From contig JAJZVO010000003.1 in NCBI GenBank assembly GCA_021845665.1, positions 11,026 to 75,025 on the forward strand: DNA of 64,000 nucleotides, given 5' to 3'. This DNA comes from Bacteroidota bacterium (GTDB taxonomy: Bacteria; Bacteroidota; Ignavibacteria; Kryptoniales; JAKASW01). Within the stretch, counting starts at the first letter, position 1; each line of letters opens with the position of its first letter. The position numbers and the translations under genes were made by a program. The notes below the pieces were generated by a model. It worked only from the letters and a program-made list of their open reading frames with translations, made no database searches and was not told the DNA's origin. Of this stretch, positions 54,951-60,699 are shown in pieces.

Positions 54951-55062
54951 CGGGAGTAATATAACCTCAGGCATCTCAAGATGCCAAGTGAGTCGAGTAT
55001 CCTGACCCACGAGCACATGATGGAGTCAAGCTCCCGCCGAGCGCGGGGCCGCGCCGTGCATA

Positions 55063-55106
55063 CAAAAAGAAACCCACCAAACGAAATTGCCTGGTGGGAA
55101 TTTCTT
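55063..55106 (-). terminator. Probable terminator downstream of hup
   Basis: CCCACCA / TGGTGGG stem followed by TTTCTTTTT on minus strand. Confidence 0.55.
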
Positions 55107-55206
55107 TTCTGCAAAAGTTCAGCACAAGATATGCGGGACCCGCTCACTCATGTGTAGATGAGAGACGACGGCTGCGGATCCGCGTCAGTGCGCCTGGGAA
55201 CGGGTC

Positions 55207-55494
55207 TTACTTCTTACCCAACACTGCGTCTTTGCAAGCCTTCGCTACCCGGAACTTCACGACTTTCTTGGCAGGAATTTGAATCTGCTCGCCGGTCGCG
55301 GGATTCCTTCCGATGCGCGCTTTTCTATTTACGAGCACAAGCTTTCCGACCCCTGGAATCGTAAACGAATTCTTTGCCTCGCGGTACGCCAACCCAGCGA
55401 GCTCCTCCAGAAATCCGGTGGCGACTTTCTTCCTTAAATCCATTTTCTTGGCCATATAGTCCGCCACCTGGGATTTTGTCATTGCCTTTCCCAT
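55207..55494 (-). CDS. hup: HU family DNA-binding protein
   Basis: MTKSQ...RKARIGRNPATGEQIQIPAK; AAGGAG SD. Confidence 0.93.
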   Translation of the reverse strand: MGKAMTKSQVADYMAKKMDLRKKVATGFLEELAGLAYREAKNSFTIPGVGKLVLVNRKARIGRNPATGEQIQIPAKKVVKFRVAKACKDAVLGKK

Positions 55495-55738
55495 ACTTAC
55501 TCCTTTTAGTTTGTGAGTTTTAAACACAATATTGGGCAAATAAAGCGAAGATGCAATCTCCGCCGCTCGATTTACGGGTATCGGACGGGCCGGGCCCGCT
55601 CCGGTTCCGCACCATCGCGCCACTGCAACAAAATAGAATATCCCGCATCACGACTTCAAGTCCCGCAATGGCATGCGGTGTACCATCACGCTCCGGCATT
55701 CTGTTTCCGGAAAAGGTCAGAACACTGGGGCTCATGCG

Positions 55739-56818
55739 TCAAGCCGGCTGTTCGTGTGTCAGGCAATGAACGGTGCCGAGTCCCCAGACCAGGTCGAGCG
55801 CATGTATCCCGATTACAGGACGGTCGTCTATCAGCTCGCCGATAATTCCGAGGGCGAGCTTATCGTTCGGATCGTCGAACGCCGGGACAAGGACCGCGGC
55901 ATTCGAGATGTAGAAGTTGGCGTAACTCGCAGGAAGCCGTTGCCCTTTGAAAATCACCGGCTGAGGCATCGGAAGATACTGGACATCCGGCTTCGAGCCG
56001 TCCTCAAGCATGAAATCCCGAACGCGTTCCCTGTTCTCCTGAAGAGGTTTGTAGTTGTCATCCTTCGGGTTCTTCTCCTGAACAAGAAGCAACGTCCTCT
56101 TATTGACGAACCGGCACAGGTCGTCCACGTGTCCGTGAGTATCGTCGCCGACTATGCCTTTACCCAGCCAGAGAACGCTGGTGATACCGAGGTAATCATG
56201 GAACACTGTCGCGTAGTCGTCTTTCGTGAAACCCGGATTCCGAGATTGGACCTTCTCTTCGAGAAGGCATTCTTCGGTGGTGAGAAGAGTTCCTTTACCG
56301 TTGTAATCTATGGAACCTCCTTCAAGTACGATATGGCGGCCGTTGTGTTCAGGGAGGAAAGAAAGTAAGCCGAGCTTCTTCGAAATGAAACCGGGGAGAT
56401 GGCGGTCCTTCTGATAGTTCCGATACTTCGCCCAGCCGTTGAACTTGAAATTCACCTGAGCGACTCCATCGGAATTCTTCACGAACTGCGGACCCGAGTC
56501 GCGGGTCCATCCCCTGTCCGTCTTGAGACTGAAAAATTCGACATTGGACAGATCGACATTCGCAGATTTCAGAACCGTCCGCGCCTGTCGCTCGTGCTCT
56601 TTCGACTCGACGACTACTCTCGCCTTTTCTCCGGCAGAAATTCTTCTGACAATCTCCGCATAGACCCATGGTATCGGAGTGAATTTGCCTGGCCAGTCGC
56701 TTTTGTTGTGCGGCCACCCGAGCCAGGTCGCCTCATGCCGCTCCCATTCGGCGGGGAGACGAAGTCCGGGAGACGGTTTGTTCGGTTTAATGGACTGTGG
56801 TTTCATTTGGTAAGTCAA
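55739..56818 (-). CDS. aguA: Agmatine deiminase family protein (start may be ATG 56806)
   Basis: LPAEWE, WTRDSGP, LEGGSI, DDTHGHVD, GTVHCLT. Confidence 0.92.
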   Translation of the reverse strand: MTYQMKPQSIKPNKPSPGLRLPAEWERHEATWLGWPHNKSDWPGKFTPIPWVYAEIVRRISAGEKARVVVESKEHERQARTVLKSANVDLSNVEFFSLKTDRGWTRDSGPQFVKNSDGVAQVNFKFNGWAKYRNYQKDRHLPGFISKKLGLLSFLPEHNGRHIVLEGGSIDYNGKGTLLTTEECLLEEKVQSRNPGFTKDDYATVFHDYLGITSVLWLGKGIVGDDTHGHVDDLCRFVNKRTLLLVQEKNPKDDNYKPLQENRERVRDFMLEDGSKPDVQYLPMPQPVIFKGQRLPASYANFYISNAAVLVPAFDDPNDKLALGIIGELIDDRPVIGIHALDLVWGLGTVHCLTHEQPA

Positions 56819-56839
56819 GATTCAAAAGTTAAAAGTCAA
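56812..56839. repeat. Heptamer tandem array, left arm
   Basis: AAGTCAA GATTCAA AAGTTAA AAGTCAA. Confidence 0.75.
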
Positions 56840-57234
56840 AAAGACAAATATGCTTCGATAGGTTCATTCACGTGAGGAAGAGGGTCCTTTGTTTTCTTAA
56901 GCTTGACGACAATAGTCCCTGTGATCCTGGAAATTTCAACCGCCTCATTGAGGAGGTCCTTCACTTCCTCTTTGTCAACGTCGAGACCGTCCCTGGAAAG
57001 ATAAAGCCAGTATTTGCTTTCGTTTGCCGACTTGAGAGTAATCTCATTGAATTTTATGAAATCTCTTCTCGAATGGGCTGCAGTCGCCTCAACCAGATTT
57101 GCCCCCACCGAAGTAGCCGATCTCAAAAGTTGATCGACCAAACTGAAATGGATCCTCTTTCCTTCGAATGAATTCGCAAGTCGTAAAACCCCCAACGAGA
57201 AATAATAGCTACGCTTTCTTATGTCCCACTCCAT
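56836..57234 (-). CDS. Four helix bundle protein (23S rRNA IVS-protein / Avd-like family)
   Basis: DQLLRSATSVGANLVE...SRRDF...LKSANESKYWL. Confidence 0.9.
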   Translation of the reverse strand: MEWDIRKRSYYFSLGVLRLANSFEGKRIHFSLVDQLLRSATSVGANLVEATAAHSRRDFIKFNEITLKSANESKYWLYLSRDGLDVDKEEVKDLLNEAVEISRITGTIVVKLKKTKDPLPHVNEPIEAYLSF

Positions 57235-57270
57235 CTCAAGCCCCCCACTCCAAAAATTGATATTCACGCC

Positions 57271-57297
57271 CTACTTTTCACTTTTTACTTTTGACTT
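57271..57297. repeat. Heptamer tandem array, right arm (inverted)
   Basis: Reverse complement AAGTCAA AAGTAAA AAGTGAA AAGTAG. Confidence 0.75.
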
Positions 57298-58221
57298 CTT
57301 CTCCAGATCCTGCCTCTCTCCGAACCGTTCCTTGATCCCCTCATACGCATCAATCCTCCTGTCACGAAGGAACGGCCAGTTCCGGCGGATATACTCGATG
57401 CGAGATGGATCGATCTCGGCCATCACGATTTCTTCTTTGTCTACGGAGGCTTGCGCTAGAATTTTTCCCTGAGGATCTGATATGAAAGACTGTCCCCAAA
57501 ACTCTATGCCGACGCTTTCCGGGTTCAGCTTCTCCAATCCCACCCGGTTTGCCGCGGCGACGTAAACTCCGTTCGCGATCGCGTGTCCGCGCTGAACTGT
57601 CTGCCATGACTCCAACTGGGCCTTGCCATGTTCCTCCTTCTCGTGCGGATGCCAGCCGATAGCGGTCGGATAGAAAAGTATCCCTGCACCTTTCAGTGTC
57701 GTGAGCCTCGCTGCTTCGGGGAACCACTGATCCCAGCAGATAAGAGTGCCGATGTCACCGTAGGCAGTCCTGAAAGTCTTGAAACCGAGGTCACCGGGTG
57801 CAAAATAGAATTTTTCGTAAAAAGCGGGGTCGTCGGGGATGTGCATCTTTCTGTAAATTCCCGCTATCTCCCCATCCAAATCAATTACCGCCAAAGAATT
57901 GTGGTACACTCCCATAGCGCGCTTTTCAAAAAGAGGAACGACCACGGCAACTTTATGCTTCTTCGCGACCTTTGAAACCGCAGCCGTCGAGGGACCGGGA
58001 ATCGTTTCGGCGAGCTCAAAATTCGCGATGTCCTCGGTCTGGCAAAAGTATTGCGACCTGAAAAGCTCAGGGAGACAAATGACCTCGGCACCGTCTTTGG
58101 CGGCCTTTTCGACAAGCGACACCGCCTTCTTCAAATTCGTGTCCGCGTCCCTGCCGGGCGCCATTTGAATGAGCCCGACCGTGAATTTACCTGGAGTCCG
58201 CGCGCCGACTTGTCGTTTCAT
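57271..58221 (-). CDS. aguB: Carbon-nitrogen hydrolase, N-carbamoylputrescine amidase-like
   Basis: LPELF, YRKMHIPDDP, ICWDQWFPE triad; near aguA. Confidence 0.85.
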   Translation of the reverse strand: MKRQVGARTPGKFTVGLIQMAPGRDADTNLKKAVSLVEKAAKDGAEVICLPELFRSQYFCQTEDIANFELAETIPGPSTAAVSKVAKKHKVAVVVPLFEKRAMGVYHNSLAVIDLDGEIAGIYRKMHIPDDPAFYEKFYFAPGDLGFKTFRTAYGDIGTLICWDQWFPEAARLTTLKGAGILFYPTAIGWHPHEKEEHGKAQLESWQTVQRGHAIANGVYVAAANRVGLEKLNPESVGIEFWGQSFISDPQGKILAQASVDKEEIVMAEIDPSRIEYIRRNWPFLRDRRIDAYEGIKERFGERQDLEKKSKVKSEK

Positions 58222-58418
58222 TTCGTTTTGTTGCTCCGTTGATTTAAAGGCCGAGACTAAGATACAAAATGTGAAGGAAAAATCTTGGAGCAGGAAGGCA
58301 CGGGAAGTTCAGGACAGTCGGCTTTCGAAAAACAGAGATCGTCGCTTCAGGCCGTCCCATTTCAAGGAACCGAGCACCCCAATCGATATGGTGGGAGAGA
58401 AGATTGCCTTTCCTCAGG

Positions 58419-59048
58419 CTATATCTTCCTTCTGATTGCCATCGATTCCCTGCGACCGGTAACGGTAACATCAAGGTCTCGCAAGATCCCGTCTGCGATG
58501 TCGTAAATCCAGCCATGGACGTTCAGCTCCCGGCCGCTTTCCCAGGCGTTCTGCACAAAAGTAGTCTGGCAAACGTTCCAGACCTGTTCCATGACGTTCA
58601 GCTCGCACATTATTTTCTGTCGCGCCGGCTCGTCAGGCTGCGCATCGACGAGAGCCTGGTGCTGTCGGTAGTTGTCCCTTATGAACTGGAGCCAGTTGTC
58701 TATGAGACCGTGATTTGCCCCTTCCAAAGCAGCCTTTACCCCGCCACAACCATAATGCCCGCACACTATTATATGACTCACCTTCAGCACTTCGACCGCA
58801 AACTGAATTACGGAGAGCGAGTTCAGGTCCGAGTGTACGACGAGGTTGGCTATGTTCCTGTGGACGAATATCTCTCCCGGCATGAGATCGACTATTTCGG
58901 TTGCCGGGACACGGCTATCCGAGCACCCAATCCACAGATACTGGGGCGCCTGCTGCTTCGAGAGTCGCGTGAAGAAATCCGGATCCTTCTCCTTTATCGA
59001 ATCGGCCCATCTCTGGTTTCTATCGAATAGATGTTTTAACGTACGCAT
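58419..59048 (-). CDS. can: Beta-class carbonic anhydrase
   Basis: WIGCSDSR, HRNIAN, GHYGCGG. Confidence 0.95.
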   Translation of the reverse strand: MRTLKHLFDRNQRWADSIKEKDPDFFTRLSKQQAPQYLWIGCSDSRVPATEIVDLMPGEIFVHRNIANLVVHSDLNSLSVIQFAVEVLKVSHIIVCGHYGCGGVKAALEGANHGLIDNWLQFIRDNYRQHQALVDAQPDEPARQKIMCELNVMEQVWNVCQTTFVQNAWESGRELNVHGWIYDIADGILRDLDVTVTGRRESMAIRRKI

Positions 59049-59187
59049 TGTACCTCAATTCTATTTTGTTCGTACCGTTCGGGCTAAAGACATTTCTCAA
59101 GCATGGCAGATTTCAAGGACAGCGAGCCTCATATTTTCTAACAACGATCCAATCTGTTTAATTCTCCCGTTCCGGCCTTTTACCGGT

Positions 59188-60699
59188 TCACGCCAGCGAG
59201 ACGGCATGCCGATTCAAAGCTTCGGCAGCAGATCGATCCAGGATTTTCCATATCACCGGAATCCATTTTTCGTGCTCCGGTTTCATGAGGACCGATCTCA
59301 GACACGTAATCGTCTCCGCGTCACGCTTCATTCCGACAGAATTGAGGTCAAGAAAATCGGCGGGAAGCTCCGAAAGGGCAAGGTGAAGGTTGTGCTTCGC
59401 AGCTTCGTAGAAGATTGCGCGGGCGAGGCCGGAGGAAACGGTCACACTTTTCGCCACCGGTGCCCAGACGACAATGTCCAGCTCCGGGGGAAACGGCGTA
59501 ATGAACCTTGCGTCTTCACGGAGCCTTCCATATAGATCGAGCGCGGCCCTGCGGCAGCTCGAGAGCGATTTCGCGAATTCTCCTCCCTCGACGAGCGGAA
59601 GCAACCTTTGCGTTGCCCAAAGTCCCACAGCGGAGGCGCCCGCCCTGGAACACTCGAGGCTTATTTCTCCAAGGTGAAGCTCCTCTGAAGTGAAGTACGT
59701 GTAAGGAGAATCGTGCTTGTAAAACCGGGCGACAGCCGGATCGCGAAAGAGCACGCACCCGCAGGCGTACGGTTGCAGACCATGCTTGTGCGGGTCAACA
59801 ACTATTGAATCAGCCTCGCCGAGCCGGCCATAAGCGGCAAGGGTCTCGCCGGAAAGGTTCTTCGCAAGCACGAAGTAGCCACCGTATGCGGAGTCGGCGT
59901 GGAGGCGAAAGCCATACTGTTCGCGGAGCCTGAGAAGTTCAGGCAGAGGGTCGATGGCGCCGGTCGCCGTTGTGCCTATGGTAGCAACTACCGTTCCGAC
60001 GTCTCCGGCATCAAGAAGTGTTTTCAAAGCGTCCAGGTCCATTCTTCCCTTGCCGTCGCACCGCACAGGCTGAAATTCCAGGCCGAGTACGGCGCTTATT
60101 CTCGAATGTGTGTAATGCGCCTGCTCTGAAGCTACGACCTTCTTGCCCGGATTCAACTGTCCTGCAACCCAAAGCGCCTCCAGGTTTGCCATCGTACCAC
60201 CGCCGGTGAGATGACCGAGATGGGCCTTCCAGCCGAACATCCGCGCGATCTCAGCGATGGACTCTTTCTCCATCCTGGAGCTCGCGCGCCCGCCGTCGAG
60301 AGCGTGATTGTTCGGATTGATCCACATGGAAAGCATGTAGGCCACACGGGCTATCGGGTGGGGAGGCTTCAGCATTTGTCCCGCGTATAACGGGTGGAAA
60401 TATGGGTAATTATCCTTCATCCGCTCGGCGACCTCGCGCATGACTTTCTGGAAGTCTTTCCCCTTCCCAGACGCAGCTTCTGCGGCCGGCAAACCGGCGA
60501 ATCCTTTTTCAAGCTTATCGAGGGCGGAACGGAGGGTCTCCAACGAAGCTTTCTCAAATGCAAATGATGATGGTCCCACTCTACAGGCGCGGGGCCCTTT
60601 CTTACCTGCTCTTGCTTTTGATCTCCTTCTTCCGCCTCGCGCCGAAGTCTTCCCTGAAGGGCTTATGTTTCTAAGGTTACTCTTCTTGGTCTTCGCCAC
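59188..60699 (-). CDS. Group II PLP-dependent decarboxylase with basic N-terminal extension
   Basis: GGTMAN, GTTATGAIDP, HADSAYGG, DPHK. Confidence 0.88.
   Translation of the reverse strand: MAKTKKSNLRNISPSGKTSARGGRRRSKARAGKKGPRACRVGPSSFAFEKASLETLRSALDKLEKGFAGLPAAEAASGKGKDFQKVMREVAERMKDNYPYFHPLYAGQMLKPPHPIARVAYMLSMWINPNNHALDGGRASSRMEKESIAEIARMFGWKAHLGHLTGGGTMANLEALWVAGQLNPGKKVVASEQAHYTHSRISAVLGLEFQPVRCDGKGRMDLDALKTLLDAGDVGTVVATIGTTATGAIDPLPELLRLREQYGFRLHADSAYGGYFVLAKNLSGETLAAYGRLGEADSIVVDPHKHGLQPYACGCVLFRDPAVARFYKHDSPYTYFTSEELHLGEISLECSRAGASAVGLWATQRLLPLVEGGEFAKSLSSCRRAALDLYGRLREDARFITPFPPELDIVVWAPVAKSVTVSSGLARAIFYEAAKHNLHLALSELPADFLDLNSVGMKRDAETITCLRSVLMKPEHEKWIPVIWKILDRSAAEALNRHAVSLA

Follow-up and report, generated by a model that had tools for sequence, protein, structure and literature searches.

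What kind of element places a small gene between inverted arrays of short repeats at the junction of two protein genes, and what are the arrays for? The question is raised by one locus in the window (the whole 64,000-nt stretch of DNA analysed), where the order on the minus strand is an aguB-like gene, a four-helix-bundle gene and an aguA-like gene. The original prediction offered a mobile or mRNA-intervening cassette, or a regulator of downstream translation. We compared these readings across related loci and genomes.

Layout of the locus

57271..58221, minus strand: aguB-like amidohydrolase gene, the upstream host gene (TIGR03381, 313 bits against a cut-off of 410)
57273..57297, minus strand: 5′ arm, about four degenerate heptamers (AAGTCAA AAGTAAA AAGTGAA AAGT)
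GTG at 57267, minus strand: alternative start of the four-helix-bundle gene, giving a 143-aa product if used
57240..57250, minus strand: G-rich stretch ahead of the ATG, likely a ribosome-binding site; the orthologs of congeners are G-rich here too
56836..57234, minus strand: four-helix-bundle gene, 132 aa, from ATG at 57234 to TGA at 56836
56812..56841, minus strand: 3′ arm, four inverted heptamers, containing the TGA of the four-helix-bundle gene
55739..56818, minus strand: aguA-like agmatine deiminase gene, the downstream host gene, starting at TTG 56818 or ATG 56806

In a profile search, the aguA-like gene matches TIGR03380/NF010070 and the aguB-like gene TIGR03381, both under the curated cut-offs. 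The cassette lies between these protein genes and outside any rRNA gene, and zero matches to Rfam families were obtained at 55000-59200 of the window. Its sole gene belongs to PF05635. It has no transposase of its own, and neither a partner transposase nor a target duplication was identified for it. The flanking open reading frames are aguA, aguB, a carbonic anhydrase, HU and others, with no adjacent reverse transcriptase or template repeat. A promoter and terminator scan returned two sites, both at chance level: a weak promoter-like one on the plus strand within aguB, and a terminator-like one 3′ of aguA. Elsewhere in the window, a small aspartyl-protease-like gene (PF13650; 60847-61263, plus strand) is oriented opposite to its neighbours and adjoins a PLP-dependent decarboxylase gene.

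Inverted AAGTNAA-like arrays do box the gene, with about four degenerate heptamers on each side as first described. Within 2 kb, no inverted repeat is longer than the one joining 56812-56836 to 57273-57297 (25 nt each, 84% complementary, 436 nt spacing); 21 of the 25 bases pair, and none of the four mismatches is G·U. On the plus strand, the 3′ arm reads AAGTCAA GATTCAA AAGTTAA AAGTCAA, and a 7-nt periodicity is present in both arms. The arms have an inverted-match score of 17, which none of 500 shuffles of the two 200-nt flanks attained (shuffle maximum, 15). The downstream array was said to cover the gene's own stop and the aguA start region, and both the TGA and a TTG in frame with the aguA ATG (56818-56816) indeed fall within the 3′ arm. 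The last eight aguB codons and stop (KSKVKSEK-stop) traverse the 5′ arm, so the array does supply the AguB tail here, as claimed; this is incidental, however, because aguB ends before the arm in five of the seven congeners carrying this cassette. A regulon search of the same genome with a matrix of this word found none: there were nine matches, against one in a shuffle, of which two are the arms and most others resemble the word of another clade.

The four-helix-bundle protein and its relatives

The protein matches TIGR02436 (88.9 bits against a cut-off of 24, E 2e-25) and PF05635 (77.5 against 33.8 bits, E 1e-21), and its predicted model consists of four long helices (pLDDT 84), without a known catalytic fold. 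The best fold-search matches are the five-chain entries 2RLD (E 3e-6, rmsd 1.7) and 2GSC, followed by Avd, in agreement with the earlier suggestion of kinship to S23/IVS proteins and Avd. By sequence, the closest kin are BT_0352 and Xcc0516, not Avd. By analogy with the five-chain relatives, we infer a homopentamer. The protein shares the four-helix fold of Avd (PDB 4DWL and 8UB7, TM ~0.69 and 0.81) at 13-14% identity. According to the accessible part of the preprint, all five protomers of Avd contact one RNA element via flipped-out bases (bioRxiv 10.1101/2023.10.23.563531); the pentamer considered here is predicted only and, unlike with Avd, no reverse transcriptase gene adjoins the cassette. 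A residue-to-base code sought column by column was not found, and the top columns resemble clade markers.

Arms as a trait of the family

The sample comprised 110 of the 187 PF05635 matches of the genus, high scores being favoured, plus 15 other loci. It yielded 124 locus records, orthologs and a few duplicates included, with four loci giving no record; a scan of genome contigs returned only two loci. An inverted score of at least 13 was found in 96 of the 124 locus records; pairs taken across loci reached it in 79 of 1189 cases and random intervals in 2 of 400. In other families, arms were present at 22 of 27 loci. The expectation that paralogs would be flanked in the same way was borne out: six of the seven PF05635 matches in the same genome show inverted 7- or 8-mer arrays, the word differing each time as read by eye. 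Among 117 unique strong loci, the repeat period is 7 in 90 and 8 in 24. Median numbers of units per arm are 4 and 5, a count that varies with the threshold chosen, and periodicity is equal in both arms (0.684 and 0.689, n = 114).

The repeat word follows the protein. The arms of different loci match in 2% of pairs at protein identities below 30% (n = 727) and in 92% at 70-80% (n = 144), a trend to be read knowing that co-inheritance alone also makes the word track the protein and that kin are non-independent. The TCAAA word also flanks members of this clade at a second site within the genus, in a further family and in one record from Patescibacteria (48% identity). The correspondence between word and protein clade, which extends over different sites and phyla, lends indirect support to the idea that the protein reads its own repeats, as the predicted ring-shaped protein likely would.

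At 94 of 114 loci, purines predominate in the 5′ arm, and a model acting purely at the DNA level leaves this strand bias unexplained. In the same genome, 55 period-7 and 22 period-8 arrays were counted, against 2 and 2 in one shuffle; many inverted array pairs are gene-less, by a tally made without a shuffle control. Dispersed hairpin-like matches to a second repeat type were seen on 12 contigs of this genome (G000; C4, C18, C30, C40, C42, C44, C51, C59, C68, C91, C104 and C112); they are 63-90% alike and MITE-like. PF05635 was also found in an in-frame fusion to FolD of 427 aa (L241:559-1842, plus strand; L242:1495-2778, minus strand), with a linker that resembles a translated 5′ repeat arm. 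In the genome of the cassette, a locus similar to this fusion (G000:C104:3282-3500) has a stop and a truncated domain, and open frames of 428-465 aa surround a PF05635 match in eight congeners.

Two kinds of known repeats bear comparison. TAACTGA heptamer arrays lie ahead of start codons and have no known binder (PMC4679880, accessible part); they are likewise intergenic 7-mer runs immediately before start codons, and MITEs are likewise dispersed gene-less hairpins with inverted ends. In contrast to TAACTGA arrays as described in that part and to MITEs, the arrays here are inverted pairs tied to a protein clade. The accessible main text of PMC4679880 contains no 'four helix bundle', 'S23' or 'Avd', the main text of preprint 10.64898/2026.10.21.760802 does not mention four helix, heptamer, intervening sequence, Avd or GxxExxY, and the part of PMC4853749 consulted for MITE context holds nothing bearing on the cassette. 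A search of titles and abstract starts, with subscription papers and bioRxiv supplements outside its scope, found no literature on an operon form of this layout.

Motif or stem

The original prediction held that the arms pair in mRNA into a stem of about 27 bp that loops out the whole open reading frame. Complementarity is real, the arm duplex has an energy of -16.9 kcal/mol, and the arms do pair in the minimum-energy fold. However, the stem has 21 of 25 pairs, the predicted ensemble of the 531-nt RNA contains only about 7 inter-arm pairs, and the fold of this RNA does not surpass those of shuffles (z 0.05). Among arm mismatches of 114 loci on the sense strand, G·U (149) and A·C (146) are about equally frequent. 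At free positions, true pairs and cross-locus controls passed through the same filter hardly differ in their in-register pairing (0.61 and 0.59). An in-register excess of 0.78 over 0.65 was rejected as selection bias, since cross-locus controls show an equal excess. Across six orthologs, both sides change in just 1 of the 25 predicted arm pairs, and many pairs are broken. In a unit-permutation test, the gain was small (mean +1.46), with 17 of 107 loci at p ≤ 0.1.

From these comparisons, the arms look selected as motifs rather than as a stem, and the claim that they are maintained as an mRNA stem for excision was not supported. The lack of a G·U excess and of extra in-register pairing speaks for a protein that binds 4–5 repeats of its own per arm rather than for RNase III excision. 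The results may also be compatible with a protein reading a bulged duplex, in the manner of the flipped-out bases of Avd. TRAP, a ring-shaped repeat reader, is offered for comparison.

Among known elements, the ORF-bearing intervening sequence (IVS) of 23S rRNA comes nearest, and the cassette is built like it, yet is not an IVS. The helix-45 IVS of Coxiella burnetii has an S23 gene, a 28-bp terminal stem, tandem heptamers and RNase III cleavage (PMC4990558). In the accessible part of that source, the two are alike in size (428-444 nt against ~486 here), in the S23-family gene in the loop, in terminal inverted repeats with tandem heptamers and in patchy distribution. They differ in that the cassette stands between protein genes and has an imperfect stem with no selection for pairing, and in that the Coxiella gene is described there as decaying whereas the gene here is under purifying selection; RNase III cleavage is reported in that part for the IVS, and excision of the cassette is hypothetical. 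On a rival reading, RNase III would act on the paired arms and release the gene from the mRNA. In its favour are the Coxiella layout, with its heptamers and cleavage within the stem, the pairing of the arms in the minimum-energy fold and the presence of an RNase III gene in the genome. We regard this reading as quite improbable: 4 of 25 positions are mismatched and the few pairs expected compare poorly with a 28-bp stem reported there to have one mismatch and one bulge, neither wobble bias nor covariation is seen, and the cuts would hit the aguB stop and the aguA start.

History of the junction

The states of the aguB-aguA junction were read by eye in 26 genomes of the genus. This cassette is present in seven (five with an intact gene, one frameshifted, one interrupted), and the empty aguB-aguA sites that had been anticipated were found in five. 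A gene-less hairpin of a second word occupies the junction in seven and one of a third word in two; one genome each shows this word without the gene, nested hairpins, a lone arm, a different gene and a spacer left unclassified. Outside the genus, aguB is directly upstream in 28 of 30 loci, and most have short spacers. One of these genomes (G201) carries this cassette at the junction, and its gene copy is placed in the sister group of the host genes. In G357, which belongs to another family, the junction holds a PF13366 GxxExxY nuclease-family gene with inverted octamer arms, and the sister genome has a gene-less remnant.

Several individual loci were recorded alongside this survey. GxxExxY/PF13366 genes lie within inverted arms at L203:2219-2593 (minus strand; octamers, aguB-aguA junction) and at G000:C8:3729-4079; a second copy in the same genome as the cassette (C58:14078) has repeats upstream and shows no clear arm downstream. 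An insert of ~390 nt with palindromic parts interrupts the four-helix-bundle gene in G011 (L013), and a hairpin of one word is nested within the arms of another in G008 (L063, contig C83). The junction of G014 (L025) is filled by a 123-aa gene with repeat traces, which we take to resemble AhpD/carboxymuconolactone decarboxylase.

Mapped onto a 29-row host tree from IQ-TREE, the cassette state and the second-word state take five changes each, four of them forced by starred branches, and the tree test rejects monophyly of the second-word genomes (p-AU 5e-9). The junction state thus changes at least four times on the host tree, as expected of a transposase-free cassette that comes and goes. The closest relative, G025 (86% identity), holds the other insert, and sister species differ in their inserts. 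Synonymous distances to G025 are 0.33 and 0.31 near the junction and 0.22-0.34 elsewhere; they are barely raised near the junction, and therefore any swap tract must be short. Among the DNA contigs of eight runs, no near-identical contig skips the cassette, and one that is ~86% alike has 242 other letters at its position. Empty and filled alleles share ~70-75% DNA identity, too diverged to compare for a target-site duplication. Terminal inverted repeats occur together with filled and empty sites, as in an insertion sequence or MITE.

Five orthologs at this site have pS of 0.72-0.88 and dN of 0.14-0.30, values which indicate that the gene is under purifying selection, and the repeat word persists across orthologs despite this synonymous divergence. 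Their saturated synonymous sites show that the cassette did not arrive here recently. It is an old, selected resident, often lost or exchanged. An old, largely inherited gene is unusual for an active mobile element.

Purifying selection would also be expected of a domesticated translational switch, in which paired arms hide the aguA start, binding of the protein releases it and the gene is thus needed by the host. Further points in its favour are that in five of six aligned orthologs a TTG in the aguA frame closes the 3′ arm, that neighbours are co-directional (upstream in 45 of 51 loci, downstream in 47 of 51) and that the upstream stop lies at most 10 nt from the start of the 5′ arm in 30 of 45 loci. 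Heptamer repeats ahead of start codons have moreover been proposed as translational sites (PMC4679880, accessible part). Of four genomes in which the copy at this site is lost or broken, two (G019 and G011) retain a gene of the same clade elsewhere, whereas the other two (G024 and G008) yielded none with this query. The junction is empty in the five congeners mentioned, the arms are gene-less in many places, pairing is not under selection and the neighbouring genes vary between sites. Such a switch is, on balance, unlikely.

In G015 (contig C35) and G005 (contig C18), the 5′ part of aguB is near-identical (third-position difference 0.01), the species being otherwise diverged; this tract points to recent recombination between congeners. 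Such recombination could account for the swaps without special machinery. The plainest account would go further and require no special system at all: the repeats would be born by slippage beside an ordinary small gene, and homologous recombination between host genes would shuffle them. Recombination is seen at this operon, the gene tree broadly fits one old insertion with many losses, and the genome has no close second copy of the gene. Slippage, however, would not yield same-word inverted pairs in so many loci, nor clade-matched words across sites and phyla, nor the same layout around the unrelated GxxExxY gene, and we find this account very improbable.

Discussion

Our preferred explanation, which we consider probable, is a self-recognising mobile cassette: the predicted pentamer would bind four to five of its own repeats at each end, and movement of the element would be aided in trans. 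Two inverted arrays of about four heptamers and a four-helix-bundle gene are lodged at the aguB-aguA stop/start junction, and the predicted pentamer would sit on the repeats, likely with one subunit per unit. The arms would be putative binding sites, and their complementarity a by-product of having the same motif on opposite strands, in the style of mobile-element ends. The cassette, apparently promoterless, would ride the host transcript and survive where both neighbours are left intact, and the gene-less hairpins may be its decay products. As the protein has no known catalytic fold, movement would require enzymes in trans; candidates are host recombination, a reverse transcriptase (as with Avd) or a nuclease such as GxxExxY. 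Here the cassette is a long-standing resident that congeners have exchanged, probably in part at least through homologous recombination.

A wider generalisation is possible, and we put it forward tentatively. Stop/start junctions of operons may host a class of transposase-free cassettes with four-helix-bundle or GxxExxY cargo; at each end, a pentameric ring would read four to five degenerate 7- or 8-mers in a clade-specific word. These cassettes would replace each other at one and the same junction via a dedicated short-tract mechanism and would seed both the unexplained heptamer repeats of bacteria and their ORF-bearing rRNA IVSs.

PF05635 is a large family without an assigned function, although pentamer structures have been solved, and for the abundant heptamer repeats of bacteria no partner is known. 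Should every clade bind its own word, one simple protein-by-arm binding matrix would address both puzzles, and PF05635 would offer a natural collection of ring proteins that differ in sequence specificity. The aguB-aguA junction itself offers a natural experiment: a single junction which, across ~50 genomes, is empty, filled, decayed, nested or swapped between cassette types.
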